This document shows positions 5,979 to 23,877 of a stretch of 29,664 nt of DNA, piece after piece. Source of the stretch: a virus (lineage: Duplodnaviria; Caudoviricetes); the IMG/VR virus record IMGVR_UViG_3300011339_000132, positions 1 to 29,664 of that record; one strand, written 5' to 3'. The position numbers and the translations under genes are program-made. The notes below the pieces were generated by a model. That model had not been told where the DNA came from. It did no database searches and worked only from the letters and a program-made list of their open reading frames with translations. Numbering within the stretch: position 1 is the stretch's first letter; each line of letters begins with the position of its first letter.

Positions 5979-6236
5979 ATGGCAAAACTCAAAATAACAA
6001 GGGCTGACGGTACGGTATCTGAGCATCAGATAACGCCAAAAATCGAGTGGGCCTTTGAGTTATATGCAAAAAAAGGTTTTCACAAAGCCTTTAGAGATGA
6101 TGAAAAGCAAAGCGATGTTTACTGGCTGGCACACGAGTGCCTTAGGTCAGCCGGCGTTGAAGTGCCTGTTTTTGGAGCGTTATTTTTAGATACCTTAGCT
6201 AAGGTTGAGGTGTTGGATGATGACCCTTCGCAATAG
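5979..6236 (+). CDS. Tail assembly chaperone (G-like)
   Basis: Position after tail tube; ends at a CCCTT slippery site followed by an overlapping -1 ORF. Confidence 0.75.
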   Translation: MAKLKITRADGTVSEHQITPKIEWAFELYAKKGFHKAFRDDEKQSDVYWLAHECLRSAGVEVPVFGALFLDTLAKVEVLDDDPSQ

Positions 6237-6424
6237 TGGGGCGCGGTAGTTTTGGTTACCTGGTAGCCCAGCTAGCCGTAGAAACGGGAATCGCGCCCCA
6301 GTACTTGCTAGACCTAGACATAGAGATGTTTAAAAATATGTTAAAGGTCATACACGATAGAAATAAGGAGATGCAAAATGCCAACAGAGCTAGAAGGGGC
6401 CGTACAGCTCCGCGTAGCACTTAA
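6224..6424 (+). CDS. Tail assembly chaperone -1 frame extension (T-like)
   Basis: The -1 frame opens at CCC 6224; LAVETGIAPQYLLDLD is homologous to LSIRLGIAPQQLLELD in B. Confidence 0.7.
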   Translation, partial: PFAIVGRGSFGYLVAQLAVETGIAPQYLLDLDIEMFKNMLKVIHDRNKEMQNANRARRGRTAPRST

Positions 6425-7088: not shown

Positions 7089-8968
7089 TGGCTACCGATT
7101 TAGTTGTAAATATAGCCAGTCAATTTTTAGGTAAAAAAGCTTTTCTTGATGCTGACAAAGCTACTAAAAAACTTACAGGTAGTGTTAAAACCTTAGGCCG
7201 TACTTTAGGCGTAAGCCTGAGCGCTGCGGCTGTTTTAGCCTATGGCAAAGCATCCGTAAAGGCAGCTAGTGAGGATATTAAAGCTCAAAAGCTATTGGCT
7301 AATAGTCTTAAAAACGTTGGCTTAGCTTATGCAACTGTTGATGTAGAGGGCTTTATATCTCAGATGCAAAGCCAAACCGGTATATTAGATGACCAACTAC
7401 GCCCGGCTTTTGCTAAATTGGCTGGGGTTACGGGCTCTGTAGCCAAAACTGAAAAACTCTTAGCTTTAGCTTTTGATGTATCAAGCGGCAGCGGATTAGA
7501 TTACGCCTCAACTGTTGACTTATTAAGCCAGGCTTATTTAGGCAATACAAAAGGATTAAAACAACTTAATTTAGGACTTACACAGGCCGAGATTAAGGCT
7601 ATGTCGTTTGACGATGTTATGGCATTACTTAATGAGCGCTTTGCTGGCTCAGGTAAGGTGGCCCTTGATACATACGTAGGGCAGATGTCTTTACTGTCAG
7701 CCTCTGCATCTAATGCTACAGAGATTATTGGCGTAAGCTTATTGGGCGCTATTGACTCATTAACGGGTAGTGACGGCATAGCTAACGTAGGTACAGACAT
7801 AGAAAATGCAGCTAGGTCACTAGCTAATTTTATAGATAGTATAGTTTATCTTAAAGAGCAAATAGCAACTATCCCAGGAGCAGGCATAGTTAAAAGCGCT
7901 TTTGGTTTAATTGGCAACGTATTGGGCCGCTTTAGCCCACAGCGCGCCGCTGAGTTGCTTAAAGAGATTAAAGGCCCACAGCCTTTTAAACAGCCAATGA
8001 CTTTAGCCAATCAAGATACAGGCCGGGCCGCAGCTGCAGCTGCTAAAAAGGCAGAGCTAGATGCTATTAAACGTAATAAAGAGCTTGCAAAATTGGCTGC
8101 GGCTCAGGCTAAAAGCGCAGCGGCTGCCCTGAAATCTAAGAAAGAGCAAGCGGCTTTAGATAAGGCAACAGCCGCCGGGCAATTAGCTTTAAGCAAAGGT
8201 ACAGAAGTTTTTGATATGGAGAAAATCCAACTCAATGCAGCCCTTATTGGCCAGGCTGAGGCGTTGGGTAAAGCAACAACTGGGGCACAAGTACTAGCTA
8301 TTGCTAATGATGTACAACGCTTGAAGATTAAACAAGATATTTTAGAATTAGAGGATGCAATAGCCTCTAAAGATGTTGCTCGTATTGTGACTGCTACTAA
8401 ACAACTCAATGAAGATTTAAAAATCTTGGCTACCCTACAAGGTCAAAACTTTACTTTGTTAAGTATTAAAACAATTTTAGATAGTATCAAACCAATAAAC
8501 TTAATAAATCTATCTAATCTAGATGAAGCTTTACTTAAAATATTAGAAATGTTAAAAACTTTAGGGGTACAAAAAGGAGACCCAATATATCAGGACTGGC
8601 CTTTGAAAAAAGTTTATGAACCGCCAGTTAGAATAGTACCTAAAATAAACCCTTTAACGGGTAATGAGTCAATCGCAGCTATTTTAGAATACTCAGATGC
8701 CGTTACAACTTTAGCTACTGTTATGGCAGATACTTTAGATGCACAGAATTACGCAGACTTTTTATCGTTAATAGAGTTCCAAAGAAAATTGGGCGATTTT
8801 GGCGGCTACAGTAGCAATATGAACGTGGGCCGTGGCTATGGCTATAGCGGTACACCAGTAGTAATTGAGGTTATAGACAAGACAAGCGGGCTTATTGAGG
8901 TAGTCCAAAACGCCGTACAAGAAAATAACAGGTTTGGCAATAACCTTAACTTTGCTGGGGCATTATGA
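7088..8968 (+). CDS. Tape measure protein (short, 626 aa)
   Basis: Longest tail gene, Ala/Leu/Lys-rich helical sequence, precedes tail tip genes. Confidence 0.85.
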   Translation: MATDLVVNIASQFLGKKAFLDADKATKKLTGSVKTLGRTLGVSLSAAAVLAYGKASVKAASEDIKAQKLLANSLKNVGLAYATVDVEGFISQMQSQTGILDDQLRPAFAKLAGVTGSVAKTEKLLALAFDVSSGSGLDYASTVDLLSQAYLGNTKGLKQLNLGLTQAEIKAMSFDDVMALLNERFAGSGKVALDTYVGQMSLLSASASNATEIIGVSLLGAIDSLTGSDGIANVGTDIENAARSLANFIDSIVYLKEQIATIPGAGIVKSAFGLIGNVLGRFSPQRAAELLKEIKGPQPFKQPMTLANQDTGRAAAAAAKKAELDAIKRNKELAKLAAAQAKSAAAALKSKKEQAALDKATAAGQLALSKGTEVFDMEKIQLNAALIGQAEALGKATTGAQVLAIANDVQRLKIKQDILELEDAIASKDVARIVTATKQLNEDLKILATLQGQNFTLLSIKTILDSIKPINLINLSNLDEALLKILEMLKTLGVQKGDPIYQDWPLKKVYEPPVRIVPKINPLTGNESIAAILEYSDAVTTLATVMADTLDAQNYADFLSLIEFQRKLGDFGGYSSNMNVGRGYGYSGTPVVIEVIDKTSGLIEVVQNAVQENNRFGNNLNFAGAL

Positions 8969-10203
8969 CCCTGCCAATAATTAACGCCGTCATTAACTTT
9001 AGTACCGGGCCTAGCTTTGCTCAGGCTATGATTTTAGATAGCGGCATATTAGGCACCAATATTTTAGCCGATGCAGCTAGTGTTATTGTGGATGTATCTG
9101 ACGTAGTAGATAGTATTGAGACAAAGCGCGGGCGTAATCCTCAGGCTGACCAATTCCAAACCGGCACGCTTACTATGCGTATAGTTGACCAAAACGGCGA
9201 TTTCAACCCGCAAAACCCAAGTAGTCCTTATTACACCCTTTTAACTCCTATGCGTAAAGTGCAGATTACAGCTACTTACGGTGCAACCACTTATCCTATT
9301 TTTGCCGGTTTTATTACTAGCTATACAACCAGTACCCCTAAAAATGCCCTTGATGTGGTTTATACCACTATTACAGCCGTAGATGCTTTTAGACTTGCTC
9401 AAAATGCTCAGATAAGTACGGTAGCCGGCACGCCTGCGGGCCAGCTTAGCGGTGCAAGAATTAACGCTTTGTTAGATGCTATTAGTTGGCCGGCTACTAT
9501 GCGTGACGTGGATGCAGGGTTAACCACAATGCAGGCAGACCCAGGCACGGCCCGTACCGCCTTAGCTGCTATGCAGACTGTAGAGACTAGCGAGTATGGC
9601 GCTTTGTATGTAGATGCCGCTGGCTCGTTTGTATTTCAAGACCGTAACGTAACGGCAGGCAGTACAGGGGCTACACCCACAGTATTTAACGATGACGGCT
9701 CAGATATTGGCTATTTTAATGCGGTGTGGCGCCTTGACGATACGCTTGTTTATAACTCAGCCAGCATCACCCGCACAGGCGGCACGGCGCAAACAGCCAT
9801 AAACCAAGCCAGCATAGATAAGTATTTTATCCACAGCTATAACCAACAAAACCTACTAATGCAAACCGATGCCGTAGCCCTGGATTACGCTCAGGCATAC
9901 GTTGCATCTAGAGCTGAGACAAGTATTAGATGCGATGCGATACAGCTAGACCTTTATACCGATAATTACAATACTGGCATAATTGCCGCCTTAGACCTTG
10001 ATTACTTTGACCCAGTAACTATTACAACTAATCAACCTGGGGCATCAACGCTTACTAAGACTTTGCAGGTGTTTGGCGTGGCTCAAAGCATTACGCCTAA
10101 CAGCTGGAAAACAACACTCACCACTTTAGAGCCAATTATTGACGGCTTTATATTAGACTCAGCGATATACGGCTTGCTTGATAGCGGCGTATTAAGTTAT
10201 TAA
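8965..10203 (+). CDS. Tail tip / hub minor tail protein
   Basis: Follows tape measure; conserved throughout in B (23877-25124). Confidence 0.7.
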   Translation: MTLPIINAVINFSTGPSFAQAMILDSGILGTNILADAASVIVDVSDVVDSIETKRGRNPQADQFQTGTLTMRIVDQNGDFNPQNPSSPYYTLLTPMRKVQITATYGATTYPIFAGFITSYTTSTPKNALDVVYTTITAVDAFRLAQNAQISTVAGTPAGQLSGARINALLDAISWPATMRDVDAGLTTMQADPGTARTALAAMQTVETSEYGALYVDAAGSFVFQDRNVTAGSTGATPTVFNDDGSDIGYFNAVWRLDDTLVYNSASITRTGGTAQTAINQASIDKYFIHSYNQQNLLMQTDAVALDYAQAYVASRAETSIRCDAIQLDLYTDNYNTGIIAALDLDYFDPVTITTNQPGASTLTKTLQVFGVAQSITPNSWKTTLTTLEPIIDGFILDSAIYGLLDSGVLSY

Positions 10204-10214
10204 GGAGCAATAAA

Positions 10215-11543
10215 ATGGCAGCTGGATTAGGGTTTAAGACCTTTACTACTGGCGAAGTACTAACGGCAGCTGATACTAACGGCTATCTAATGCAGGGCGT
10301 GTTAGTTTTTGCCTCAGCCGCAGCTAGAGATGCAGCTATCACCTCACCGCAAGAAGGCCAATGCTGTTATTTAAAAGACACCGATGCGGTGTTAACTTAT
10401 TCAGGTTCAGCCTGGGTTGGCTTTGACGATAGCAACGCTATTCAGAATACAATCGTCGATGCAAAGGGCGATTTAATTACTGCAACCGCAGCAGATACAC
10501 CAGCTCGCCTAGCAGTAGGCAATAACGGCGAAACTCTTGTAGCCGATAGTGCCGCCACAACAGGCTTGCGATATAGCGCAACACCAAGTGCGAGCAATCC
10601 AATTCTCAATTCTGCTTATCAAGTAGCACAACGAGGTACTTCTTTTACTATTGCTTCCTCTACTGCAACTTATACGCTAGACCGCTGGCAGGCTTATCGC
10701 ACTGCAACGGGTATGACAGTTACCCAACAAAATACAGGCGATACAACTAATCTGCCTTTTATTCAAAAGTGTGTGCGTTTAGCGCGTGATTCAGGTACTA
10801 CTTCAACTGCTGCAATTCAATATATTCAAACTATGGAAAGCGTTAATTCAATTCCTTTTGCTGGAAAAACAATAACCTTGTCTTTCTATGCTAGAGCAGG
10901 AGCAAACTATTCTCCTACTTCTTCCGCTTTGTTGGTATATCTACAAACTGGAACAGGTACTGACCAAAATTACATAAACGGATTTACAGGTGCGACTAAT
11001 ATAGTCAGCGGCTCAACAGCCACTCTTACAACAACTTGGCAGCGATTTACATTTACTGCAACAGTTGGCGCAACTGCCACTCAGTTGGCAATGGCTCTAA
11101 ATATGAATCCGACTGGTACTGCTGGTGCTAATGACTATTGTGAAGTGACTGGCTGGCAAATTGATGTCGGCAGCGTGGCACTACCTTTTAGAACCTATGC
11201 CGCTACTATCCAAGGGGAATTAGCCGCTTGCCAGCGTTACTATCAAATAGTTCATTCTTTCACAGGTAACGCCTCAACCACTACACAAATCCACGCACCT
11301 CTTAATTTCGTAATGCCTATGCGTACATCTCCTAGTGTTGCTGGTTCGGCTGCTCTGTATGTTTCAGATGGCACAAATGACTTTCAGCAATCATCAACAA
11401 GTGTGGCCTTTGTTAATGGCAACAGAGTAACATCTCAAAACTGCCAATTAGTTATGACAAACTTTACGGGTATGACGCAATGGCGTAGTTATATGCAGGT
11501 TTCAACTGCTGGTGGCGATATTCAACTAAGTGCGGAGTTATAA
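10215..11543 (+). CDS. Tail fibre / receptor-binding protein with carbohydrate-binding-like C-terminal region
   Basis: About 120 N-terminal aa shared with B; then DRW, GKTITLSFYAR, LTTTWQRF and ELAACQRYY motifs typical of phage fibre beta-sandwich modules. Confidence 0.75.
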   Translation: MAAGLGFKTFTTGEVLTAADTNGYLMQGVLVFASAAARDAAITSPQEGQCCYLKDTDAVLTYSGSAWVGFDDSNAIQNTIVDAKGDLITATAADTPARLAVGNNGETLVADSAATTGLRYSATPSASNPILNSAYQVAQRGTSFTIASSTATYTLDRWQAYRTATGMTVTQQNTGDTTNLPFIQKCVRLARDSGTTSTAAIQYIQTMESVNSIPFAGKTITLSFYARAGANYSPTSSALLVYLQTGTGTDQNYINGFTGATNIVSGSTATLTTTWQRFTFTATVGATATQLAMALNMNPTGTAGANDYCEVTGWQIDVGSVALPFRTYAATIQGELAACQRYYQIVHSFTGNASTTTQIHAPLNFVMPMRTSPSVAGSAALYVSDGTNDFQQSSTSVAFVNGNRVTSQNCQLVMTNFTGMTQWRSYMQVSTAGGDIQLSAEL

Positions 11544-11544
11544 A

Positions 11545-11715
11545 ATGATTAAATATGAAATCAGAAAAGATGAAGAAGGCAACGACCTACTTTTCAAGAT
11601 TGAAGAAAACGGCAAGGAGTGGTCAGTACCTATGATTGACGGCAATTCTGACTATGCTGCATACCTCAATCCAGAAGCGGCACTATCCACACCAATAGTA
11701 AGCGATGCAGACTAG
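11545..11715 (+). CDS. Small acidic protein, putative fibre chaperone
   Basis: Follows the RBP; SD GGAG before ATG 11545; NSDYAAYL motif. Confidence 0.6.
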   Translation: MIKYEIRKDEEGNDLLFKIEENGKEWSVPMIDGNSDYAAYLNPEAALSTPIVSDAD

Positions 11716-12172
11716 CTACAACGGCTGGCCGGCATCTAAAGACCAGGCCGAAATAGGCATAAAAACCTATACAGTAGAGGGCACAAGCCTAAAGCTGCGT
11801 TGCGCCGAAAAGGTAGCGCCGTTACTTATTAACTTTGCTAAAGAGTTTAACGAGCTAATAGAGCCGTTAGAAGGCGGGGCGCTAGATGACTGGGGCTACT
11901 GTTACCGTATGGTGCGGGGTACTACCGACAAACTGAGTAACCACAGTAGCGGCACAGCTATAGACCTAAACGCAACTAAACACCCGCTTGCTAAAGTAGG
12001 TACGTTTGAAGCTGGCAAAGTGCCAATGATTAGAGCTTTAGCTAAAAAATACGGCCTCACTTGGGGCGGGGATTACAAAAACCGTAAAGATGAAATGCAC
12101 TTTGAAATAGCTTTAAGCCCTGAAAAGGTCAGGGCGTTAATTACAAAGTTAGGATTAGATGATGCCAACTAG
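11705..12172 (+). CDS. Endolysin, M15-family Zn peptidase
   Basis: R...SNHSSGTAID and WGGDY...DEMHFE motifs. Confidence 0.88.
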   Translation: MQTSYNGWPASKDQAEIGIKTYTVEGTSLKLRCAEKVAPLLINFAKEFNELIEPLEGGALDDWGYCYRMVRGTTDKLSNHSSGTAIDLNATKHPLAKVGTFEAGKVPMIRALAKKYGLTWGGDYKNRKDEMHFEIALSPEKVRALITKLGLDDAN

Positions 12173-12419
12173 CGCACAGGTAAGCGTAGGTACAACACCA
12201 ACACTTTTGGTAGCCTCAACAGGCTTTGACCAAACCGTATGGCTGCACAATTCAGGCGGCGGTATTGTGTATTTAGGCGATAGCAGCGTTACAACGGCAA
12301 ACGGCTATAAATTGGATAACGGCGATAAAATGCAGCTTTTAGTAGGTGACCACGAAGGGCTTTATGCCATTACAGCGGCGGGTACTAATACCGTTGGTGT
12401 ACTTAAACAAATAAACTAA
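12159..12419 (+). CDS. Hypothetical small beta-rich protein in the lysis region
   Basis: Overlaps lysin stop; no counterpart in B. Confidence 0.7.
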   Translation: MMPTSAQVSVGTTPTLLVASTGFDQTVWLHNSGGGIVYLGDSSVTTANGYKLDNGDKMQLLVGDHEGLYAITAAGTNTVGVLKQIN

Positions 12420-12436
12420 GGGCACTAAGGAGCAAA

Positions 12437-12628
12437 ATGAATAAAGAGCAACTAAAGGCCGCTGGCCTATCCTACCTACGTGCGGCCCTATCGTGCGTGG
12501 GTGCGCTGTACCTTTCAGGTATTACAGACCCTAAGATATTAGCTAATGCTTTTATTGCAGGCCTTATCGGCCCACTATTAAAAGCTGCTGACCCTAAAAA
12601 CGGTGAGTTTGGCGTAAAGGCCAAGTAA
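12437..12628 (+). CDS. Putative holin
   Basis: SD AAGGAG, 63 aa, two hydrophobic segments, basic C-terminus. Confidence 0.65.
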   Translation: MNKEQLKAAGLSYLRAALSCVGALYLSGITDPKILANAFIAGLIGPLLKAADPKNGEFGVKAK

Positions 12629-12843
12629 TGACACAAGCCCAGGCATATATGGCGTTGTTATTGGGGATAGCCACGCTCGCAACTTTTATGGCTGGGCTTG
12701 TTAGGCACCTTGTTAAATATTATCTAGCTGAGCTGCGCCCTGACGGCAACGGGGGGCATAACCTTGTAGGGCGTGTTGAGCGTATCGAGGTGCGAGTAGA
12801 TAAAATCTACGAAATGCTCATAGAGGACAGATTAGCTAAGTAG
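12628..12843 (+). CDS. Single-TM membrane protein with coiled-coil tail (lysis accessory)
   Basis: TAATG coupling; RVDKIY motif shared with B 26725-26874 (RVDEIY). Confidence 0.65.
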   Translation: MTQAQAYMALLLGIATLATFMAGLVRHLVKYYLAELRPDGNGGHNLVGRVERIEVRVDKIYEMLIEDRLAK

Positions 12844-12917
12844 GGCGTGTCGCGTTGCCTTATGTCGGTGGGTAGGTTCATACTTTAACTACACGCTGAG
12901 AGGGCTACTCAGGTAGT
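12844..12917 (+). promoter_or_regulatory. Putative early promoter with inverted GACACGCC box and 5' leader hairpin
   Basis: GGCGTGTC 12844-12851; TTGCCT-N18-CATACT; hairpin ACTAC..CTGAG-AGGGCTA-CTCAG-GTAGT at 12888-12917. Confidence 0.6.
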
Positions 12918-12947
12918 AGCTTTATCGGCCTTAACAAAGGGCGAATA

Positions 12948-13109
12948 ATGAATAGTTTAGACTTAATTGTAGTAGGTATGGTTTGCCTGTTTATGGGCTT
13001 GTTTATTTATGCAGCTTATGAAATGGGTTACAAAGTTGGCTTAGGTGAAGGTTACCTACGTGGCCGTAATATCGCTAAGGCGTTACGCGAAAGCGAGGCT
13101 GCTAAATGA
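12948..13109 (+). CDS. 53-aa membrane-anchored early protein
   Basis: N-terminal TM then GLGEGYLRGR; ATGA overlap with next gene; positional homologue at 27982-28143. Confidence 0.75.
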   Translation: MNSLDLIVVGMVCLFMGLFIYAAYEMGYKVGLGEGYLRGRNIAKALRESEAAK

Positions 13110-13708
13110 GTAACTTTCTTGAAGGATACGAGGACGTCAACGCCAGGATTATTAGAGCACGGGCTGAATATCCCACTTTGCGCTTAGTTGCCTATATTGA
13201 AGATATAGATATAACAAAAGGTTATATTCTTGTTAAAGCTGAGGCCTACAAAGAGTACGAAGACCATTTACCTAGCGCTGTTGATTATGCGTTTGAGATG
13301 CGCAGCGATAGAGGCGTGAACCTGCATTTTTGGGTAGAAAACGCGGTAACCAGCGCTTATGGGCGCGTTATAGGCCTGTTAACACCTGGCGGCATAGCTC
13401 GTAGCACTAAACAAGATATGGAAAAGGTAGAAGCATTAAGCGCTAAAGATGTTGCACCAGCTAGTGAGGATTTATGGGCTACGACACCGGTAGCGCAGAC
13501 CATAGAGGCAGTTAAAAATGAGCTAGGAGGTGTTTACCTACAAGGCAAGCCGGAGTGCATCCACGGCGCCCGTGTGTGGCGGGAAGGATTCTCCACTAAG
13601 ACCAACAAAAAATGGGGCAATTACAGCTGCACAGAAAAGAGCAAAGCATCACAATGTGAGCCAGTTTGGTATATGCAAACCTCTACAGGTTGGGCGCCCC
13701 AGGTATGA
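13106..13708 (+). CDS. Rad52/Sak-like ssDNA annealing protein with C-terminal Zn finger
   Basis: ENAVTSAYGR motif; C-terminal CxHG...C...C. Confidence 0.65.
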   Translation: MSNFLEGYEDVNARIIRARAEYPTLRLVAYIEDIDITKGYILVKAEAYKEYEDHLPSAVDYAFEMRSDRGVNLHFWVENAVTSAYGRVIGLLTPGGIARSTKQDMEKVEALSAKDVAPASEDLWATTPVAQTIEAVKNELGGVYLQGKPECIHGARVWREGFSTKTNKKWGNYSCTEKSKASQCEPVWYMQTSTGWAPQV

Positions 13709-13896
13709 GCGATAGATACGAGCTAATTAACTTGCAGACTATGACGGGCAAACTCTTCATAGAGGGTGAGCTTGCAGCTGAGTACAAAGTAGAAACGTGC
13801 GACAGATGCGCAAAAGTTAGCCAATTAGACCAGTTTGGTTATCAAAAGTCAGACCCGGTTGAAAACGTTATATGGTTTTGCAAGGATTGTAGGTAA
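13705..13896 (+). CDS. Small Zn-ribbon protein
   Basis: CDRC...CKDC; start moved to ATG 13705 (ATGA overlap). Confidence 0.7.
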   Translation: MSDRYELINLQTMTGKLFIEGELAAEYKVETCDRCAKVSQLDQFGYQKSDPVENVIWFCKDCR

Positions 13897-14312
13897 TGAG
13901 CGTATCTAAGTCCGATTGGGATTTAGATTTAAGATATGGCCAGGACGGCGAAGAGTCGGTACGGCGTTTACTTACGATAGACACCGTAGAGGTCAAACGT
14001 GATAGGCGCTGGAAAGAGACGGGTAACCTCTACATAGAGACGTCTTGCTATTACGTCAATGACGGGGCTTTCAAGCCCTCAGGCGTGTCAGTATCTAAAG
14101 CTACGCATTTTGCCTTTGTTATAGAGGATTTAACTATCCTTGTATCCAAATCTGACCTTATCAACACGGTAAAAGAATACGGCAGAAATATCAGCTGTAA
14201 GATTGAGCCTAACGTCTCTTTTGGTTACCTTATTACTATTGATTCATTACTTAAATGGCAGTTAGAAAAGGCTGAAAGATTGGATTTTATCTATGGACAG
14301 TATCCGCTTTGA
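13896..14312 (+). CDS. PD-(D/E)XK-like nuclease-fold protein
   Basis: GQDGE...TVEVKRD...TGNLYIE pattern. Confidence 0.55.
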   Translation: MSVSKSDWDLDLRYGQDGEESVRRLLTIDTVEVKRDRRWKETGNLYIETSCYYVNDGAFKPSGVSVSKATHFAFVIEDLTILVSKSDLINTVKEYGRNISCKIEPNVSFGYLITIDSLLKWQLEKAERLDFIYGQYPL

Positions 14313-14451
14313 GTGTCGCAGCTGTAAAAAGATAACTGAGCAGCTAGAGCGCATAGTTACCGATAACCTGCCGCCTAACGTAAAGGTCTTACAATGCAAG
14401 GTATGTAGCAAAATGAGCGTATGCCTGTTGGTTACTTATGCCGATGTATGA
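14293..14451 (+). CDS. 52-aa Zn-ribbon protein
   Basis: MDSIRFECRSC...LQCKVC, overlapping its neighbours; not in the supplied track. Confidence 0.7.
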   Translation: MDSIRFECRSCKKITEQLERIVTDNLPPNVKVLQCKVCSKMSVCLLVTYADV

Positions 14452-14605
14452 GTATGAGTGCATAAGCTGCAGTATGCGCGTAGAGCTACAACGCTCAGTA
14501 CACGATGAAAGCGAGCCGTTATGCTGTGGCGTGACTATGCGCCAAATCTATGGCTCAATAGGTACCATATTTAAAGGCACCGGTTGGGGTAAAAATGCTA
14601 AATAG
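14438..14605 (+). CDS. FmdB-family Zn-ribbon protein (55 aa)
   Basis: MPMYEYECISC start and FKGTGW end are characteristic of this family. Confidence 0.8.
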   Translation: MPMYEYECISCSMRVELQRSVHDESEPLCCGVTMRQIYGSIGTIFKGTGWGKNAK

Positions 14606-15101
14606 TTATCCACAGAGGTTATCCACAGGGTTAAATAACTGTGGAGACACGCCCAAGACTACGCTTAAAGTTGCATTTCGTTTGACATCGTTGGTACGCT
14701 GGTACCGCGCAGGCGAGCCGCTGAGGCGTAGCTCAGCCAAGCGCTATCAGCTAACGCCACACTTATGCTTATTGCTAAGCCTATTACAAATATTTAACGT
14801 GCAAAGCGCAAGTGCATATGACCCAAACGTAGAAAGCTATAAGTTATATGCTCATATGAAGCTACTCAATGATAAGCAATATAGATGCCTGGTAACGCTA
14901 TGGCGTTTAGAGAGTAACTGGTCACCAACGGCTAAGAATCCTAAAAGTAGTGCGTTCGGCATACCTCAACTATTAAAGATGACTGAGACTAATCCATATA
15001 AACAGATAGACTTAGGCATTAAATATATTACTCATCATAAGCTGTATAAAGGTGATACGTGCAAAGCGTTAGATAGGCACAAGAAGGTAGGGCATTACTA
15101 A
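14595..15101 (+). CDS. Lytic transglycosylase (SLT / lysozyme-like); true start probably downstream of ~14700
   Basis: CLVTLWRLESNW...SSAFGIPQ...NPYKQIDLGIKYI motifs; hydrophobic signal-like segment ending ASA. Confidence 0.8.
   Translation: MLNSYPQRLSTGLNNCGDTPKTTLKVAFRLTSLVRWYRAGEPLRRSSAKRYQLTPHLCLLLSLLQIFNVQSASAYDPNVESYKLYAHMKLLNDKQYRCLVTLWRLESNWSPTAKNPKSSAFGIPQLLKMTETNPYKQIDLGIKYITHHKLYKGDTCKALDRHKKVGHY
14606..14648 (+). promoter_or_regulatory. DnaA-box cluster, putative replication origin
   Basis: Perfect TTATCCACA at 14606-14614 and 14619-14627; degenerate inverted box TGTGGAGAC at 14640-14648. Confidence 0.75.
14646..14700 (+). promoter_or_regulatory. Putative late promoter with GACACGCC box
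   Basis: GACACGCC 14646-14653; TTGCAT-N18-TACGCT. Confidence 0.5.
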
Positions 15102-15439
15102 TGGCTAATCGCGGTGACCCCAGGCTAAAGCGTGCATATCGTGACGGCTTTCGCACTAAGATACTGCAGCGCGACGGGTACGTATGCTTCTACTGTGGCC
15201 AAGATGCAGACCAGGTTGACCACGTAATCCCAATATCTAAAGCGCCTGAGCTAGTAGTAAGTGCCGATAACGCTGTTGCCTGTTGCAAGCGTTGTAACAC
15301 ACGTAAGGGTAATAGGTCACAGGGCGTTTTTTTAGCCACGACTGCTACCCCCCCTGTCTTTTCAGGACGTATATACCCGATGCAGTCCGAGCCGATGCTG
15401 GACAGTCCTTTTACAGTCCGACCTAGTCCGAGTCAATGA
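15101..15439 (+). CDS. HNH endonuclease (packaging-associated), probably chimeric A/B across the junction
   Basis: RDGYVCFYCG, DHVIP, CCKRCNTRKG; ATGA overlap with terL. Confidence 0.9.
   Translation: MANRGDPRLKRAYRDGFRTKILQRDGYVCFYCGQDADQVDHVIPISKAPELVVSADNAVACCKRCNTRKGNRSQGVFLATTATPPVFSGRIYPMQSEPMLDSPFTVRPSPSQ
15321..15434. other. Putative cos / packaging region and A-B junction
   Basis: T7 run, C7 run (15348-15354), TGTCTTTTC, then phased AGTCC repeats, directly upstream of terL. The exact cut site is not determinable here. Confidence 0.5.
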
Positions 15440-16881
15440 CAACTAAGACCAAAAAGACCCAGCCGTTGCGAGGGGCAACGCAACCGAGGGTTCATTCACC
15501 ATTTCTCAAAGGCAAAACTAGAGCTGGTGAAGTAATTGAAATGATTGAGCGTCTAAAAATGGACAAGCTCATGCCATATCAGGAGTTCGTCTTAAAACAG
15601 ATGATGATGGTGGATAAAAAAGACCAGTATCGAATCAAGACGGCTCTGTTGCTTATTGCGCGTCAGAATGGTAAGTCTCATCTAGGCAGAGTGCGTGTTA
15701 TCTGGGGCATGTTTTATGGTGGCGAAAAGAAGCACATCATCATGTCCTCAAACCGAGCTACTGCTCTTATGACCTTTAGAGAAATTGCATGGATCATAGA
15801 ATCAACGCCGGAATTAAAGGCAATGACTAAAGCAGTGCGTTATGCCAACGGTGGTGAGCGAATAGAGCTGCTCAATGGCGCAACGCTTGACTTAGTATCA
15901 GATACGAGAGATTCAGCGCGTGGTCGAACTGCTGACTTCTTGTGGATTGATGAAGTGCGTGAAATATCTGAGGACGGCTATAAAGCGGCTATTCCAACTA
16001 CTCGCGCTAGAGCTAACGCTCAGACATTCTTGACATCAAATGCCGGTGATGCATTCTCAACAGTTCTCAATGGGCTTGTCGAACGCGCTAAGGATTATCC
16101 TCCAGAAACCTTTGGCTATTATGAGTATTCCGCACCGCAGTATTGCAAGATAGACATCAGATTAGAAGCATTTTGGCGAGATGCAGTAGCACCCAGTAAT
16201 CCTGCACTGGGTTACACAGTCACTAAAGAGTCAATCGAAGAAGCAATCGCAACTGCTCCTATTGAGACCACTCGAACCGAGACTTTATGCCAGTGGATTG
16301 ATTCATTACAAAGCCCGTGGCCACATGGCATTCTAGAGGAGACTAGCGACAATACTTTGGAAATAGCAGTTGGGGCTTATACTGTATTCGGTTTCGATGT
16401 CAGTCCTTCTAGAAGGAATGCATCTTTAGTCGCTGGACAATTACTTCCAGATGGGAGGATTGGCATTGGAATCATGGAGACTTGGACTTCTCAGGTCGCA
16501 GTTGATGATCTAAAAATTGCAGCAGCTATAAAAGGCTGGTGTGACCTTTACAAACCGCGTTTAGTCTGCTACGACAAGTACGCAACTCAATCCATTGCCG
16601 ATAGGCTTAAGCAGGCCGGAGTAATGACCGAGGATGTCTCAGGCCAGCAGTTCTATCAAGCTTGTGGGGATTTACTGACTGGATTGGTAACGCATAAGGT
16701 CGTTCATAATGGTCAGGCGGAATTGATCCAGCAGATGAATAACTGTGCAGCTAAGGTCAATGATTCGGCTTGGAGAATTATTAAGAGAAAGTCAGCGGGT
16801 GACATTTCTGCCCCAATCGGTTTGGCAATGGTCGTAAGCAAGTTAATGCTTCCAGCCCCTAAGCCACAAATCGTTGCCTAG
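15436..16881 (+). CDS. terL: Terminase large subunit
   Basis: ARQNGKS Walker A, FLWIDE Walker B; homologous to 30-1448. Confidence 0.95.
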   Translation: MTTKTKKTQPLRGATQPRVHSPFLKGKTRAGEVIEMIERLKMDKLMPYQEFVLKQMMMVDKKDQYRIKTALLLIARQNGKSHLGRVRVIWGMFYGGEKKHIIMSSNRATALMTFREIAWIIESTPELKAMTKAVRYANGGERIELLNGATLDLVSDTRDSARGRTADFLWIDEVREISEDGYKAAIPTTRARANAQTFLTSNAGDAFSTVLNGLVERAKDYPPETFGYYEYSAPQYCKIDIRLEAFWRDAVAPSNPALGYTVTKESIEEAIATAPIETTRTETLCQWIDSLQSPWPHGILEETSDNTLEIAVGAYTVFGFDVSPSRRNASLVAGQLLPDGRIGIGIMETWTSQVAVDDLKIAAAIKGWCDLYKPRLVCYDKYATQSIADRLKQAGVMTEDVSGQQFYQACGDLLTGLVTHKVVHNGQAELIQQMNNCAAKVNDSAWRIIKRKSAGDISAPIGLAMVVSKLMLPAPKPQIVA

Positions 16882-16933
16882 ACACACCTTTGGTGGTATG
16901 TCAAATACTTGACATGTGCTACCATTTATGTCT
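16881..16933 (+). promoter_or_regulatory. Putative leaderless portal promoter with GACAC box and palindrome
   Basis: GACACACC 16881-16888; ATGTCAA-N4-TTGACAT 16898-16915; -10 TACCAT 16920-16925. Confidence 0.55.
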
Positions 16934-18055
16934 ATGGGTCGCATTCTGCAAACATTCGGGTTACAGCCTAAGCCTTTATTAGAAGCTCAGTCTGCACCAC
17001 AAGTTCTTGGCGAGTATTCACCTTATGCAATGCCTTTCCAGTTTGCATATGTTGGCAGAACAGAAGCAATGTCCGTTCCAGCATTAGCACGATGCCGTAA
17101 TTTACTGGCTGGCACTATTGGTGCGATTCCTTTAGAGCTGTATAAAAAATCAACTAATGAAGAACTTGGCTCACCTGCATGGTTAGAGCAGCCTTCATAT
17201 TCACAGCCAAGATCAGTAACGATTGCATGGACTGTTGATTCATTATTATTTTATGGTCAAGCATTCTGGCAAGTAGTTGAAGTGTATGCAGAAGATGGCC
17301 GACCATCTCGTTTTGAATGGGTTGCTAACTCTCGCGTTACTGCAACACTAGATGCAACTAATACATTCGTTAAGTCTTACGCAGTTGATGGAACAACATT
17401 ACCAATGGATGGATTAGGTTCTCTAATCACATTCCAGTCACTTAGCGATGGCATTCTCAATACTGGCACTTCTACTATTCGTGCAGCTATTGATGTGCAA
17501 AAAGCAGCAGCTATTGCAGCGGCTACTCCAATGGCTTCTGGTTACATTAAAAACACAGGCGCAGATTTAGATCCAAAAGAAGTGCAGGGATTACTTGCTT
17601 CATGGAAAAATGCTCGTCAGAATCGCGCTACTGCATATCTCACATCTACTTTAGAATATAACCCAGTTTCATTCTCACCTAAAGACATGATGTATGGGGA
17701 AGCCATTTTCAACCTTGCGACTGAATGCGCCAGACTGTGCAATGTGCCTGCTTATTATGTTTCAGCAGACCAAAACAATTCTATGACTTATGCCAATGTG
17801 CAAGATGAGCGCAAGCAATTCCTTACACTATCTCTACAACCATTTATCACAGCTATTGAAGATCGTTTATCTATGGACGATATTACTGCTCGCGGTAATG
17901 TAGTGAAGTTTGATATTGACAAAAACTTCTTGCGTACTGACCCTATGCAAGAACTCGCAGTAATTGAAAAACTTTTATCCCTCAACCTCATCACACAGGA
18001 ACAGGCGATGGAAATGACTGATCTAACACCTAATGGAAGTCAAGGTATGCAATGA
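16934..18055 (+). CDS. HK97-type portal protein
   Basis: Homologous to 1504-2667; start set at MGRILQTFG by alignment to MGLLQTLG. Confidence 0.93.
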   Translation: MGRILQTFGLQPKPLLEAQSAPQVLGEYSPYAMPFQFAYVGRTEAMSVPALARCRNLLAGTIGAIPLELYKKSTNEELGSPAWLEQPSYSQPRSVTIAWTVDSLLFYGQAFWQVVEVYAEDGRPSRFEWVANSRVTATLDATNTFVKSYAVDGTTLPMDGLGSLITFQSLSDGILNTGTSTIRAAIDVQKAAAIAAATPMASGYIKNTGADLDPKEVQGLLASWKNARQNRATAYLTSTLEYNPVSFSPKDMMYGEAIFNLATECARLCNVPAYYVSADQNNSMTYANVQDERKQFLTLSLQPFITAIEDRLSMDDITARGNVVKFDIDKNFLRTDPMQELAVIEKLLSLNLITQEQAMEMTDLTPNGSQGMQ

Positions 18056-19602
18056 ACCAAGTAATTACCTTCTCGGCTGATTTAACAGCCGACTCAGCAA
18101 GTCGCACAGTCTCAGGCAAAATTGTGCCTCTTAATGTTGAGGCAGGCTCGACCAATATGGGCAAAGTAATCTTTGCTTCTGGCTCTATTGAGATTTCAGA
18201 CCCTAAGTCAATTAAACTTTTAAGCTCTCACGACACAAAGAAGCCTTTAGGTCGCATGGTTTCATTTAGCGAGTCAGAGAACTCCATCGATGCAGTATTT
18301 TCTGTCAGTCGTTCACAACGCGGCACAGAAGCTCTCATCCTTGCAGAAGAAGGCTTGCAGTCAGGTCTTAGCATCGGTGCAGAAGTCCTCAAGTCAAAAA
18401 TCAAGGACGGCGTGACTTATGTGTCTGCTGCTCGCTTGATTGAAGTAAGTTTAGTAACCGAGCCAGCATTCAAGTCAGCTCAGGTTACTGATATTGCAGC
18501 AGAAGAATCTGCTGTAGAAGAAACAACCCAACCAACAGAAAGCGAGACAGCCATCGTGGAAGAAACCACTTCAGCAGTCGAAGCAACACCAGTTGAAGCA
18601 CAAGCGGTTGAAACTGCTCGCCCAACTGTATCAGCAGCATATTACACAAAGCCTCGCATTGAAGTAACAGCAGCTAAGTATGCTGAAAACTCAATTCGTG
18701 CAGCACTAGGTGATGAGTCAGCTCGTCAATACCTACTAGCAGCAGACAACACAACAGACAACGCAGGTCTAGTACCAACACGCCAGTTGTCAGAAATCAT
18801 CAATCCACTTGGAACAACAATCCGTCCAAGCATTGAAGCAATCTCACGCGGGGTTCTTCCAGATGCAGGTATGACTTTTGAGATTCCAAAAATCACAGCA
18901 ATGCCAACAGTTGCAGACACAGCAGAAGATGCAGCATTCTCAGACACAGATCAGACTTCAGCGTTCTTGTCAGTAACAGTCAAGAAGTACGCTGGACAAC
19001 AGACATTCTCTGTCGAATTGCTAGATCGTACATCTCCAGCATTCTTTGATGAGCTAGTCCGCAATATGGCAGCAGCTTACGCAAAGGCAACAGATGCAGC
19101 AGTTAATGCAGCTCTCATTGCAGGTGCAACAGCAGATGCAACCACAACAGTAACTTATCCAACAGCTTCAGAGTTGCTTGGAATCGTTGCTCGCGGTTCA
19201 GCTTCTGTCTATAACGCAACACTAGGTTTGGCTAACCCATTTGCTCGCAACATGATTGTGAATACAAGCCAATGGAGCAACATCATGACACTAAATGACG
19301 GCGGGCGTCCAATCTATAACGCTTCACAGCCTATGAACGCTGGTGGATTAGTAACACCAACAGCACTACAAGGAAATGTTGCAGGACTTAACCTCTATGT
19401 AACACCAAACACAGCTTCTGGAACAGACACAGACGGCTCAATCGTCATCGTAAACCCAGATGCATACACATGGTACGAGTCACCAACATACCGCTTACGC
19501 GCTGAATCAACAGCAGCTGGTTCAGTTACTATCGGTTACTACGGCTTTGGAGCAATTGCTACTAAGGTCGCAGCAGGCGCATTCAAGAACAACAAGGCGT
19601 AA
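18052..19602 (+). CDS. Prohead protease - major capsid protein fusion
   Basis: LLSSHD, GLSIG, LIEVSLV protease motifs; acidic linker; capsid domain (DGGRPIY). Confidence 0.9.
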   Translation: MNQVITFSADLTADSASRTVSGKIVPLNVEAGSTNMGKVIFASGSIEISDPKSIKLLSSHDTKKPLGRMVSFSESENSIDAVFSVSRSQRGTEALILAEEGLQSGLSIGAEVLKSKIKDGVTYVSAARLIEVSLVTEPAFKSAQVTDIAAEESAVEETTQPTESETAIVEETTSAVEATPVEAQAVETARPTVSAAYYTKPRIEVTAAKYAENSIRAALGDESARQYLLAADNTTDNAGLVPTRQLSEIINPLGTTIRPSIEAISRGVLPDAGMTFEIPKITAMPTVADTAEDAAFSDTDQTSAFLSVTVKKYAGQQTFSVELLDRTSPAFFDELVRNMAAAYAKATDAAVNAALIAGATADATTTVTYPTASELLGIVARGSASVYNATLGLANPFARNMIVNTSQWSNIMTLNDGGRPIYNASQPMNAGGLVTPTALQGNVAGLNLYVTPNTASGTDTDGSIVIVNPDAYTWYESPTYRLRAESTAAGSVTIGYYGFGAIATKVAAGAFKNNKA

Positions 19603-19616
19603 GCCACACTAAGTCG

Positions 19617-19649
19617 CTCTGAGGGGCAGTAGCCCTCTGCCCCTCAGAG
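19617..19649 (+). terminator. Post-capsid hairpin with TAGCCCT loop
   Basis: Perfect 13-bp stem CTCTGAGGGGCAG / CTGCCCCTCAGAG followed by TCTTT. Confidence 0.7.
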
Positions 19650-19668
19650 TCTTTAGAAAGGACAAAGC

Positions 19669-20241
19669 ATGGCACTTACCACAGTTGCAGAACTCCGTAG
19701 CACTCTCGGAGTCGGTACGCTGTATCCAGATGCCACTTTGCAGGAAGTGTGTGACGCTACAGATGCAGTCCTACTTCCAATGCTATGGGCAGACACCAGT
19801 TTTAATATCGCACACAGCAACACAACTACAGTGGGCACTTTATATTTTAATGAACTCGTTAAAGACACATTTTATGTAGGTCAAACAGTTGTAGTAACTA
19901 ACAACAAATCCCATCTTAATGGATCAAAGACAATTACAGTCGTTGGCGATTACTCAATTTCTTATGCAATTACCGGCACTCCAGCAGCCGAGCCACGACA
20001 CAATGTCAATCCTTATGGAATAGTAACCGTTGCTCCATCAACCGATTGGACTGCCGATGCAGCCATTCAAAATGCAGCTTTGATGATATCTGTTGAAATC
20101 TGGCAAGCCCGAACCGCTACCCTTTCAGGTTCTAACTTGGTCGATTTCCAGCCAAGCCCTTACCGAATGAGCGCACAGCTTCTCGCTAAGGTGCGAGGAT
20201 TGATAGCACACGCACTAGACCCTCGCTCGATGGTGGGATAA
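19669..20241 (+). CDS. Head-tail adaptor with inserted beta-rich domain
   Basis: Homologous to 4369-5022; SD AAAGGA. Confidence 0.75.
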   Translation: MALTTVAELRSTLGVGTLYPDATLQEVCDATDAVLLPMLWADTSFNIAHSNTTTVGTLYFNELVKDTFYVGQTVVVTNNKSHLNGSKTITVVGDYSISYAITGTPAAEPRHNVNPYGIVTVAPSTDWTADAAIQNAALMISVEIWQARTATLSGSNLVDFQPSPYRMSAQLLAKVRGLIAHALDPRSMVG

Positions 20242-20633
20242 TGACAGTTGCTATCACTACACTTAGAACGACACTTGCCACAGCTCTAGTCGATAACTCA
20301 AAATGGCAGACCTTTGCATTCCCGCCTGCCACAGTTTTGGCTAACTCGGTTATTGTCAGTCCCGATGACCCATACCTGACACCTAACAATAATCAGCACA
20401 TCACCATAAGCCCAACGGCTAATTTTAAGATTATTATTACAGTGCCTTTATTCGATAATGAAGGCAACCTTAATGGCATTGAAGATTTCGTAGTGCGAGT
20501 GTTTAACCTGCTCGCTGCATCATCTCTGGTCTATAATGTAAGCGCAATTAGCGCACCTAGTGTTCTCAATGCTGCGTCTGGAGACTTACTCAGCTGCGAG
20601 ATGTCCATAAATATATTAACGAGTTGGGGATAA
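20241..20633 (+). CDS. Tail terminator / completion-like protein
   Basis: Homologous to 5023-5415. Confidence 0.6.
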   Translation: MTVAITTLRTTLATALVDNSKWQTFAFPPATVLANSVIVSPDDPYLTPNNNQHITISPTANFKIIITVPLFDNEGNLNGIEDFVVRVFNLLAASSLVYNVSAISAPSVLNAASGDLLSCEMSINILTSWG

Positions 20634-20634
20634 T

Positions 20635-20736
20635 ATGTCCGAGTGGGAAAAAGAAAATGCAGACTTCCTGAAGAAAATCGGGCAAGTTAGCGAACCAGCA
20701 CCAAAGCCAGCACCTACTAAGAAAGATGAGGAATAA
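20635..20736 (+). CDS. 33-aa micro-protein (MSEWEKENADFLKKIGQ...)
   Basis: Syntenic with 5419-5532 and sharing its motif. Confidence 0.75.
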   Translation: MSEWEKENADFLKKIGQVSEPAPKPAPTKKDEE

Positions 20737-20741
20737 TCCTA

Positions 20742-21161
20742 ATGGCTGTATTTCTAAATAATAATGTCGGCGTTAAGATTAACTCAGTTGATCTTAGCGA
20801 CCATGTCACAGCAGTAACAATCAACCGTTCATTTGATGAGCTAGAAGTCACCGCAATGGGTGACACAGCACACAAGTTCGTTAAGGGCTTGGAAGCATCA
20901 ACAGTTACTATTGATTTCCTTAATGACACAGCATCAGCGAATGTTCTTGCAACATTGCAAGCTGCATGGGGAACAACAGTTACAGCAGTATTCCTTCAAA
21001 CAAAGGGAACAGCAGTATCTGCAACCAATCCTCTTTACACAGTCTCATTGCTAATCAATAACACAACTGACATCAATGGCGCAGTCGGTGATATTGGCAC
21101 ACAGTCAATCACTTTTACTGCTAACTCAACAGTTGCAGTAGCTACATCAGGTTCATTCTAA
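20742..21161 (+). CDS. Major tail (tube) protein
   Basis: Homologous to 5538-5954. Confidence 0.8.
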   Translation: MAVFLNNNVGVKINSVDLSDHVTAVTINRSFDELEVTAMGDTAHKFVKGLEASTVTIDFLNDTASANVLATLQAAWGTTVTAVFLQTKGTAVSATNPLYTVSLLINNTTDINGAVGDIGTQSITFTANSTVAVATSGSF

Positions 21162-21184
21162 ACAATTAAACAAAGGGGCTAAAC

Positions 21185-21442
21185 ATGGCAAAACTAAAGA
21201 TAGTTCGAACAGATGGAAGCGTGGTCGAGGGTGAGATTACTCCAGCAGTGGAGTATGCATTCGAGCAATTCGCTAAAAAGGGTTTTCATAAGGCTTTTCG
21301 TGATGATGAGAAGCAGTCGGATGTCTATTGGATTGCATGGGAAGTCCTACGCCGTTCAGGTGAGACGGTTAAGCCTTTTGGGCTTGAGTTCATCGAAACA
21401 CTCAAAAGTGTTGAGGTGCTTGACTCAGACCCTTTGTCTTAA
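21185..21442 (+). CDS. Tail assembly chaperone (G-like)
   Basis: Homologous to 5979-6236; slippery heptamer CCCTTTG at 21430-21436. Confidence 0.75.
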   Translation: MAKLKIVRTDGSVVEGEITPAVEYAFEQFAKKGFHKAFRDDEKQSDVYWIAWEVLRRSGETVKPFGLEFIETLKSVEVLDSDPLS

Positions 21443-21612
21443 AGCGCGATCTCCCGTTCACTTACCTCATTGCTAGGCTAAGCATAAGGTTGGGAATCGC
21501 GCCACAGCAGTTATTAGAATTAGACCCAGTAATGCTCCAAGCCTTATTGCAAGGTCTTAAAGATGAAGCAAAGGAGATTCAAGATGCCAGTAAGCGTAAA
21601 GGGCGGTATTGA
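21430..21612 (+). CDS. Tail assembly chaperone -1 frame extension (T-like)
   Basis: PFVLKRDLPFTYLIARLSIRLGIAPQ...; no start codon before the conserved part. Confidence 0.75.
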   Translation, partial: PFVLKRDLPFTYLIARLSIRLGIAPQQLLELDPVMLQALLQGLKDEAKEIQDASKRKGRY

Positions 21613-22264
21613 ACTCCGCAAGGCTTTAAAACAATTTACGCCTGATCTTGCTAAAGAAACTCAAAAAGAGTTGGGTTTGATTTTAAAACCGATTACAGCT
21701 AAGGCGCGTGGATTTATACCCTCAACCACACCTTTAAGTGGTTGGGCTAAAAGCAGTTCAACTAAATGGGGAACAGATCGTATTTGGAGTTCTGGAACCG
21801 CAAAGCGTGGAATTGGATTCAAAGCCACACCATCAAAGCCTAATCGTTCTGGATGGCGTTCTTTGGCTCGCATTGTCAATGCATCAGCAGCTGGTGCAAT
21901 TTATGAGACTGCAGGTCGCAAAAATCCTAATGGCAGACCTCAGGCAAAAATGCAGGAAGTGGTTATTCCTACTTTTCGTGCTGATACTGGAGCGGGCGAA
22001 CGCCGTTATATGACTTCTACTGGTAAAAATTATGGTAAAAGCAATAACCCTAATGCTGGCCAACAGTTTGTTGATGCTCTGAATAATACAGGCAAGATAG
22101 TTGATGCTTATCAGCGCGGAGCAGGCGAAGCTGGAAGAGCCTCACGCAAAATGAAAGGTCGCGCAATCTTTCGGGCATGGAAAGAAGATGAAGGCAAGGC
22201 CACGGCAGCAGTTATTAAAGCCATTGAAAAGTCACGCGATAAATTAGAAGCGAGGGTTGGCTAA
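21584..22264 (+). CDS. Virion morphogenesis protein, possibly HK97 gp10-like
   Basis: SD AAGGAG before ATG 21584; homologous to 6378-7088. Confidence 0.55.
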   Translation: MPVSVKGGIELRKALKQFTPDLAKETQKELGLILKPITAKARGFIPSTTPLSGWAKSSSTKWGTDRIWSSGTAKRGIGFKATPSKPNRSGWRSLARIVNASAAGAIYETAGRKNPNGRPQAKMQEVVIPTFRADTGAGERRYMTSTGKNYGKSNNPNAGQQFVDALNNTGKIVDAYQRGAGEAGRASRKMKGRAIFRAWKEDEGKATAAVIKAIEKSRDKLEARVG

Positions 22265-23877
22265 TGGCTACTGATGTAAAAATTGATATAGCGGCAGAGT
22301 TCACTGGCAAAAAGGCTTTTAAGCAAGCAGAGACTGCAACCGATAAACTTAATAAAGGTGTGTCTAACCTTGCCAAAGGTGTTATTGCTGCATTCAGCGT
22401 AGGCAAAGTATTGGCTTTCTCTAAGGCATCAATTAAAGCAGCAGCAGCTGATCAGAAGGCTCAACAGCAACTAGCACTAGCTCTTAAAAATGTTGGTCTC
22501 GGTAGAGATGCAGCAACGGCTGAAGGATATATCCAACGCCTTCAGAGTGAGTTTGGCATAGTTGATGACAAGTTGCGTCCTGCTTATCAAGTTTTGGCTA
22601 TTGCTACACGCAATACTGCTGAGTCTCAAAGACTTATGGGCATTGCGATGGACGTCAGTGCTGCAAGTGGTATCGATTTACAATCAGTCTCAAAAGCATT
22701 AAGCAAGGCATATTTAGGCAATAACACTGCCTTGTCTAAATTAGGTGTTGGAATATCTAAGGCAGACCTTAAAACTAAATCTTTTAAGGAAATCACAGAT
22801 CAGTTATCCCTTACCTTTGCTGGTGCTGCAACAGAAGCTGCAAGTGGTTATCAAGGCTCATTAGATAAACTCACCGTTGCTTCCAATAATTTTAAAGAAT
22901 CTATTGGCGTTGGCTTAATTGAAGCCCTACAGATTCTTTCAGGTGATCAAGGACTTGGTGCAGCAACATCTGCTTTTGAAAAATATGGCCAAAAAATTTC
23001 AGATGCCACAGTAGGCACAGCTTATTTATTAAATGAATTGAAGAAGATTCCAGGTGCTTCACTGGCTTTAGGTCTGCTTAGTGACCCTCTTGGTATCAAT
23101 AGTCTGCTTAATGCAGCTCAGGCATTCAAGCAACAGCCAAGACCGTTCAAAACCCCTATGACTATTTCAGGTCAAGTTGAAAAGAAAACATCAAGTTCTG
23201 CTCAAAACAAGCTTGCTAAAGAGACTCTTAAGGTCAATAAAGACAGTCTTAAACTGGCTAAAGCTAAAGCAATCTTTGACCTACAAAAGATTCAGATTGA
23301 AGCCGCCCTCAAGGGTAAGATTTCAGAAGAAGAACGCATTCGCCTTAAGCTCATGCAGGCTATTGAAAATGAGAACATTGACCAGATTGACAAATACACC
23401 AAGCAACTGGATGAAGCTCAAAAGAATACTGAAAAGTTAGTTGCGACTCTTCAAAGCATTAAGCCTTTGGATGACATATTCAAGAATTGGTCATTTATGG
23501 GAGTCCAGCAGCAACTGGCCACACTTTCCAGTTATTTCAATAACTTTGCTGGATCAGCGGCTTCAGCCTTTGCTTCTTTAGGTTCAGCACAAAAGGCTGC
23601 ACTTGGTGGCTATGTGCCATTCGTAGGTGCAACCAATGCATCACTTGGCATCACTTCAACTGGTGGCAATACAACATCAATGCCATCAACAGTAGGCTTG
23701 GGAACTAACGGCACTGGCAATCAACTGCCAGCAGGCGTCACGATTAACACGACTGTTCAAGGTTCAGTCATTGTAGAAAATGACCTTAATGAAGCAATCA
23801 ATAAAGCGTTGGCAGCTTCAGGATGGGCTGGCACAGCTATTGGATATAATCGTCAAGCAGTCATAACGGCGATATAA
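22264..23877 (+). CDS. Tape measure protein (short, 537 aa)
   Basis: Homologous N-terminal half to 7088-8968. Confidence 0.85.
   Translation: MATDVKIDIAAEFTGKKAFKQAETATDKLNKGVSNLAKGVIAAFSVGKVLAFSKASIKAAAADQKAQQQLALALKNVGLGRDAATAEGYIQRLQSEFGIVDDKLRPAYQVLAIATRNTAESQRLMGIAMDVSAASGIDLQSVSKALSKAYLGNNTALSKLGVGISKADLKTKSFKEITDQLSLTFAGAATEAASGYQGSLDKLTVASNNFKESIGVGLIEALQILSGDQGLGAATSAFEKYGQKISDATVGTAYLLNELKKIPGASLALGLLSDPLGINSLLNAAQAFKQQPRPFKTPMTISGQVEKKTSSSAQNKLAKETLKVNKDSLKLAKAKAIFDLQKIQIEAALKGKISEEERIRLKLMQAIENENIDQIDKYTKQLDEAQKNTEKLVATLQSIKPLDDIFKNWSFMGVQQQLATLSSYFNNFAGSAASAFASLGSAQKAALGGYVPFVGATNASLGITSTGGNTTSMPSTVGLGTNGTGNQLPAGVTINTTVQGSVIVENDLNEAINKALAASGWAGTAIGYNRQAVITAI

Follow-up and report, generated by a model that had tools for sequence, protein, structure and literature searches.

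A 29.7-kb virus record joins two divergent mini-phage genomes at a cos site shared across lineages, probably through their sticky ends in vitro

Introduction

How do two different phage genomes, each with its own terminase, come to lie head-to-tail in a single record, and why does the gene that spans their boundary remain in frame? The stretch of DNA analysed here (29,664 nt, hereafter the window) poses both questions. An initial annotation, made from the sequence, placed the boundary inside an HNH gene at a likely cos site, and left open whether the join is a true hetero-concatemer, a product of library ligation or an assembly chimera. Here we examine the two genomes, the site at which they meet and the distribution of similar joins in public assemblies, and weigh the possible origins of the record against each other.

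Results

Two collinear genomes in one record

The following features describe the layout of the window:

1..15348, plus strand: genome A, nearly complete, with terL, portal, protease-capsid, tail module, endolysin, small genes, a transglycosylase-like gene and the N-terminal part of an HNH gene
15362..29664, plus strand: genome B, with an exact left end; its own HNH N-terminal part lies outside the window
1..30, plus strand: end of A's own HNH tail, TGQPEQDVN-stop, the stop overlapping the terL A ATG at 30
30..1448, plus strand: large terminase of A (terL A), PHROG 9, E 3e-63
15436..16881, plus strand: large terminase of B (terL B), PHROG 9, E 1e-62, its start overlapping the HNH stop

Both halves follow the order terL-portal-protease/capsid-tail-lysis-small genes at an offset of ~15.4 kb, and PHROGs 12, 80 and 2263 (portal, maturation protease and major head gene) are matched in A and in B, all after terL. 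The halves are collinear by tblastx, with a DNA identity of 65-81% that is confined to short patches, and the two large terminases are 58% identical, all of which bears out the initial description of two syntenic but divergent ~15-kb genomes that abut. The unit of genome A measures ~15.4 kb, with 51 nt absent at its left end, and that of genome B ~15.9 kb, with ~1.6 kb absent at its right end as judged from the distance to cos in a relative (L174); single-unit relatives of the A type are 15-16 kb long. A self-comparison of the window revealed no long direct repeat. The initial claim that host DNA and an integrase are lacking held up as well, as the ORFs scanned included no host genes and an integrase match was found neither among 45 ORFs compared with PHROGs nor among 28 compared with Pfam, these being the main plus-strand ORFs out of 102 listed. 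Further genomes flanking the window, a possibility raised at the outset, do not exist, since the window is the entire 29,664-base virus record.

Several other traits of the two genomes deserve mention. In each, the protease and the major head protein form one ORF (2624-4291, 555 aa, and 18052-19602, 516 aa). The genes in the endolysin slot are unrelated between A (11705-12172) and B (26157-26588), the tail fibres (10215-11543 and 25134-25952) have only their N-terminal part in common, and a metallophosphoesterase (27029-27841) is present in B and absent from A. One relative of the A clade (L124, 15093-15716) carries tandem repeats of ~135-140 nt in a tail-region gene.

Among cultured phages, actinobacteriophages give the best terL matches, at 27-29%. 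Four contigs of relatives (L378-L381) have been binned in metagenome-assembled genomes (MAGs) of four unrelated bacterial groups, and one of these, L380, has its first base exactly where the genome begins on the left. Because of the unrelated bins and this start, these contigs are likely free phage rather than prophages.

A cos site shared by three terminase lineages

The join and the elements around it are as follows:

15349..15361, plus strand: cos and A/B join, the 13-mer CCCCCCTGTCTTT, with a predicted 13-nt 3' overhang
15327..15333, plus strand: T-tract, candidate terminase recognition element, 16-22 nt before cos
15370..15380, plus strand: motif, candidate terminase recognition element, 8-18 nt after cos
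15101..15439, plus strand: hybrid HNH ORF of 112 aa, with residues 1-82 from A, TPPVF over cos and the tail from B

The 13-mer CCCCCCTGTCTTT occurs once in the window. Defining the cos termini from contig ends, not read ends, we found that 48 of the 144 terL A and terL B loci listed begin with the base that directly follows the 13-mer, 21 of them 80 nt before terL A and 27 of them 74 nt before terL B, the latter corresponding to window position 15362. On the other side, 11 of the 80 HNH-recruited loci listed end at the base equivalent to 15348, and any other start or end offset occurs at most twice. The 13-mer itself is missing from both the left-end and the right-end contig sets. According to the text of PMC5557969, end repair trims 3' overhangs and leaves a gap between termini, which would account for the 13 missing bases, and a 13-nt 3' overhang is therefore the likely structure of the genome ends. 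The pile-ups on both sides of the 13-mer support a cos site at the join, and they sharpen its position, initially given as near 15350, to exactly 15349-15361.

A third terminase lineage, C2, carries the same 13-mer and starts at the same place in 14 of the 53 loci listed. Its terL is 47-49% identical to terL A and terL B, and as such three terminase lineages that are pairwise 47-58% identical have a cos in common. C2 (L386, which is G005 13875-15314 on the minus strand, and L416, L417 and L420-L465) combines an A-type portal and capsid with an HNH gene of its own, and its portal shows 74-91% DNA identity to that of window A. Judged from these genes, C2 appears to be a natural swap of the HNH-terL module in which cos was kept and the two parts of HNH stayed with their terL; an origin by exchange at cos was considered and rejected, since the HNH N-terminal part and terL of C2 travel together.

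Around cos, the T-tract is conserved at 94-100% per position in 159 junctions, and six positions of the motif after cos at 98-99% in the same set. Among distant terL relatives (24-25%) no similar cos motif was found. One locus (L377, 1551-1597) has two copies of cos at a spacing of 34 nt; this local duplication probably arose as an artefact of assembly or library.

An HNH gene that reads across cos

The HNH domain (Pfam PF01844, above the cut-off) covers residues 29-72 of the hybrid ORF and lies entirely within the part derived from A. This N-terminal part is 95-99% identical to A-type right ends, and the tail is identical to the B-type left ends L147 and L174, ending VRPSPSQ-stop and overlapping the terL B ATG at 15436. 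A's own tail, TGQPEQDVN-stop, also comes after cos in the A-A junctions L002, L003, L008 and L009. The two different tails reported initially were thus recovered on reading the ORFs. L147 and L174 have exactly the left end of B and match the last 300 bases of the window at 94%, and by this resemblance B's own right end is probably like theirs.

Reading through cos is a general property of the family. Of 190 distinct junctions listed, 159 have enough flank to be read, and in all 159 the HNH frame crosses cos as TPPVF and reaches a stop 26-38 codons on, compared with 53 and 79 of the 159 for the same read-through in the control frames. In 147 of them the HNH stop overlaps a start codon at the terL position, and TPPVF is present in 99 of the 120 protein relatives listed. 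In the packaged genome the HNH domain and the tail would consequently sit at opposite termini, right and left respectively, and in the phage cycle the HNH gene would be whole only once the ends have rejoined. The tail varies with the terL lineage and may be a terminase-binding peptide.

Which tail follows an A-type right end was counted in 19 junctions listed: the A tail in 14, the tail of a sister lineage, A3, in three and the B tail in two, namely the window and L001. In a protein collection, 106 of the 122 members with A's HNH N-terminal part have A's tail and 10 the A3 tail, and a foreign tail occurs in six one-member clusters, including that of the window, whose exact hybrid is found nowhere else in the collection. 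A-type right ends therefore normally take an A-type tail, and the HNH gene of the window is, as first proposed, an in-frame A/B hybrid.

Joins between lineages cluster in a few assemblies

For 182 junctions with at least 35 nt on each side (the window left out, 8 of 190 dropped), we grouped the junctions by public assembly number, the hetero-joins being called by hand from clusters. Cross-lineage junctions make up 11 of 18 in one numerical block of 8 assemblies, versus 1 of 164 across the remaining 129 (Fisher p 3e-12, for a block drawn after the data were seen); when the block is disregarded, a permutation by assembly gives p 1e-5 for the tendency of hetero-joins to fall in the same assemblies. 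Three of the scans targeted hetero-joins or B's left end, which raises the hetero count, and the counts are among the matches listed, so the junction fractions are not population rates. As a control, 13 assemblies outside the block contain at least two lineages, and not one of their 34 junctions crosses from one lineage to another. The single cross-lineage join outside the block is L001. Joins occur both from A to B and from B to A (L001, L081, L083).

Hubs are apparent among the joins of the block. A single B-type left end is shared by four different right ends in one assembly; one right end is joined to four lineages across four assemblies, and another meets the left ends of A1, B and C2 in addition to its own. 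We also compared redundant ends in 31 whole contigs, chosen for length or discordance. In four block contigs these ends are 68-85% identical, and among 19 contigs with redundant ends outside the block, 11 are 95-100% and eight 79-93% identical. This shows that mixing within lineages is not confined to the block, with breakpoints that are not placeable at cos. A contig of 25.3 kb (G030, comprising L411 and L412, 1-25302), in which 10 kb are redundant at 99% identity, is a self-dimer through cos and the homo counterpart of the window.

A metagenome scan for partners of A-type right ends returned eight loci, none with a B-type left end, and five of these eight end at cos or at most 3 nt from it. 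None of the loci fetched aligned at 90% or more across the join of the window. Of three matches to the A-to-B pattern, one (L344) was rejected as a hetero-join, being an ordinary B-B junction instead.

Foreign right ends enter B's left end in k=31 contigs

Four runs that hold both genomes (X1, X3, X5 and X7), and that are possibly not independent of the window, were studied through contigs assembled at k=31, not through reads. In all four, foreign right ends pass through cos into B's left end (X1 record 3, X3 record 11, X5 record 18, X7 record 21): an A-clade-like right end in X1 (7.9x) and X3 (10.5x), where the records extend only 11 nt beyond cos, and, in X5 (18x) and X7 (53x), two further right ends that are likewise foreign, the lineage of short pieces being read from listed differences and loose ends. 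Trunk contigs start 2-5 nt before cos, where several right ends converge. The exact A-B join of the window was not found among the contigs listed from these runs.

Depth over cos compared with that just after it was 176 versus 190 in X1, 115 versus 92 in X3, 18 versus 18 in X5 and 53 versus 53 in X7, and since the two are about equal, nearly all ends look sealed. In X1, A has a depth of ~20-30x versus ~190x for B's left end. The contexts of A-A and B-B junctions share 19-20 nt (the 13-mer, 4-5 nt before and 2 nt after), and the shared context in L001 is about 18 nt.

Discussion

Origin of the join

On balance we think it probable that A and B are separate mini-phage genomes joined in vitro, their virion ends having been annealed by abundance during library preparation. 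The terminase, probably with help from HNH as in HK97, would cut at cos, and the resulting 13-bp duplex, with a computed Tm of 43-53 C (10 mM magnesium, 1-100 nM), would melt and re-form during warm library steps. Ring closure of the intact 15.4-kb genome is computed to compete with joining up to ~15 ug/ml only, and after fragmentation a right end would no longer be favoured to meet its own left end, and rare ends would therefore go to abundant ones. In standard library chemistry two paired 3' overhangs prime each other; the join would then be fixed by a ligase, or by a polymerase that extends the paired 3' ends, after which the assembler would walk from A to B. Random annealing implies that rare genomes are glued to abundant ends, that hubs form and that the outcome depends on the protocol, which is the pattern seen, with the proviso that an effect of sample type or assembler can mimic a protocol effect in the block. 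Because polymerase can extend paired 3' overhangs, omitting ligase would be a weak test, and a ligase-free library need not abolish the join. The origin that the initial annotation had left undecided can therefore be narrowed: a library artefact is better supported than either co-infection or misassembly alone. It is likely that the predicted sticky ends, not nature, made the join, and the shared, HNH-coding cos revealed by the record is real.

Alternatively, A and B may have infected the same cell, where their compatible ends annealed and were sealed by host ligase into a mixed concatemer with a hybrid HNH gene. Such an origin is consistent with a cos and flanking motifs common across lineages, with a hybrid that stays in frame, with joins in both directions and with the one join outside the block; moreover, the computed ring-closure concentration of ~1.5 nM for 15.4 kb would lie below one molecule in a very small cell. 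We nonetheless regard it as unlikely, as co-infection would give a majority of self-joins and pairs limited by host, whereas self-joins are the minority in the block, hetero-joins hardly occur outside it, also where several lineages are found together, and the hubs track a few ends and not fixed pairs. At least six lineages would, furthermore, need common hosts and near-simultaneous infection. In a wider form of this idea, which seems to us similarly doubtful, a universal cos would let co-infecting mini-phages with terminases about half identical splice their genomes in the cell, hybrid HNH proteins would arise directly, either terminase would package from the mixed concatemers and one crossover would swap whole arms of the genome. 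G005, in which a C2 left arm sits on a body 92% identical to A, has the form that a cos join plus one crossover would give; however, this is a lone example that comes from the block, and outside the block C2 junctions retain an HNH of their own.

That no molecule ever held the join, the assembler having crossed from A to B at the common cos context, would agree with the exact join being present in one record only, with a batch effect that could reflect one assembler, and with a very diverse population that breaks graphs into short pieces. The smallest k of common assemblers is usually 21, however, which exceeds the common context of 19-20 nt in the window and about 18 in L001; in the separate k=31 assembly foreign right ends still enter B's left end, and lineages that co-occur in 13 other assemblies were not misjoined. 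A pure assembly chimera therefore has little to recommend it. Least credible, and in our view very improbable, is a heritable 30-kb composite phage or tandem prophage with two full gene sets, even though the record is contiguous and the join free of frameshift: both halves exist as free 15-16 kb units that end at cos, contig ends pile up at the internal site, the hybrid HNH never recurs, and the ORFs scanned include neither integrase nor host DNA. In cos phages an internal intact cos is cut during packaging, and the one inside such a composite would be too. A concatemer of a satellite or PICI-type element, which would lack virion genes and depend on the capsid of a helper, was rejected, since terL, portal, capsid and tail genes are present in each half.

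Implications

The 29.7-kb record should be split into two genomes. At the same time, it allowed the site at which an abundant but uncultured phage family packages its DNA to be mapped to the base. This cos is constant across three terminase lineages and coding in the HNH gene, in phages where a small terminase is undetected, and what recognises the DNA becomes directly testable. For viromes, the joins point to a systematic artefact: where a cos is common to a family, contigs can combine different species, proteins can be spurious hybrids and genomes can look complete when they are not. Such cos chimeras will not be exposed by read support if the library itself contains the joins. Should it prove true that joins form in cells, divergent phages would have in them a means to exchange genomes and to package one another's DNA. 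In the main texts of the literature searched, among them passages of PMC8008629 and PMC8443750, we found neither cos-mediated joins between different phages in viromes nor a description of the cos of this small-phage family.

Comparison with known systems

The proposed joining resembles that of lambda, whose cohesive ends form concatemers in vitro in concentrated DNA, complementary single-stranded ends annealing between molecules. Unlike in lambda, the DNAs that pair here come from different members of a natural phage community, and their ends, predicted to be 3' overhangs, would be able to prime each other.

In size and habitat the genomes resemble the freshwater miniphages described by Kavagutti et al. 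(2019, PMC6802176), which have a genome-size peak at ca. 15 kb: the sizes fit this peak, and relatives occur in riverine, lake and estuary runs. The likeness is one of size description, and with 15.4 kb for A and 15.9 kb for B both lie just over that set, which comprises genomes under 15 kb. A term search of the main text of PMC6802176 found no passage on a cos site or concatemers.

The packaging module invites comparison with that of HK97, described in PMC11331095 as consisting of the small terminase gp1, the large terminase gp2, the HNH protein gp74 and a 10-nt 3' cos. In common with HK97, the genome has a 3' overhang, here predicted from the absent terminal bases, begins on the left with terL, has its HNH gene at the opposite end, and keeps the order of portal, protease and capsid. 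No match to a small-terminase family was obtained with PHROGs (45 ORFs) or Pfam (28 ORFs), the last 1.6 kb of B lying outside the window, and for this reason we do not file the module as a member of the HK97 type. Moreover, terL starts 74-80 nt after cos and this space is taken up by the HNH tail, which leaves no room for a small terminase gene there. Unlike in HK97, then, the overhang measures 13 nt, cos lies inside the HNH ORF with a tail of 26-38 codons filling the space before terL, and one cos serves terL lineages that are 47-58% identical, with the small terminase gene undetected. By analogy with HK97, the HNH protein probably assists terminase cleavage at cos.
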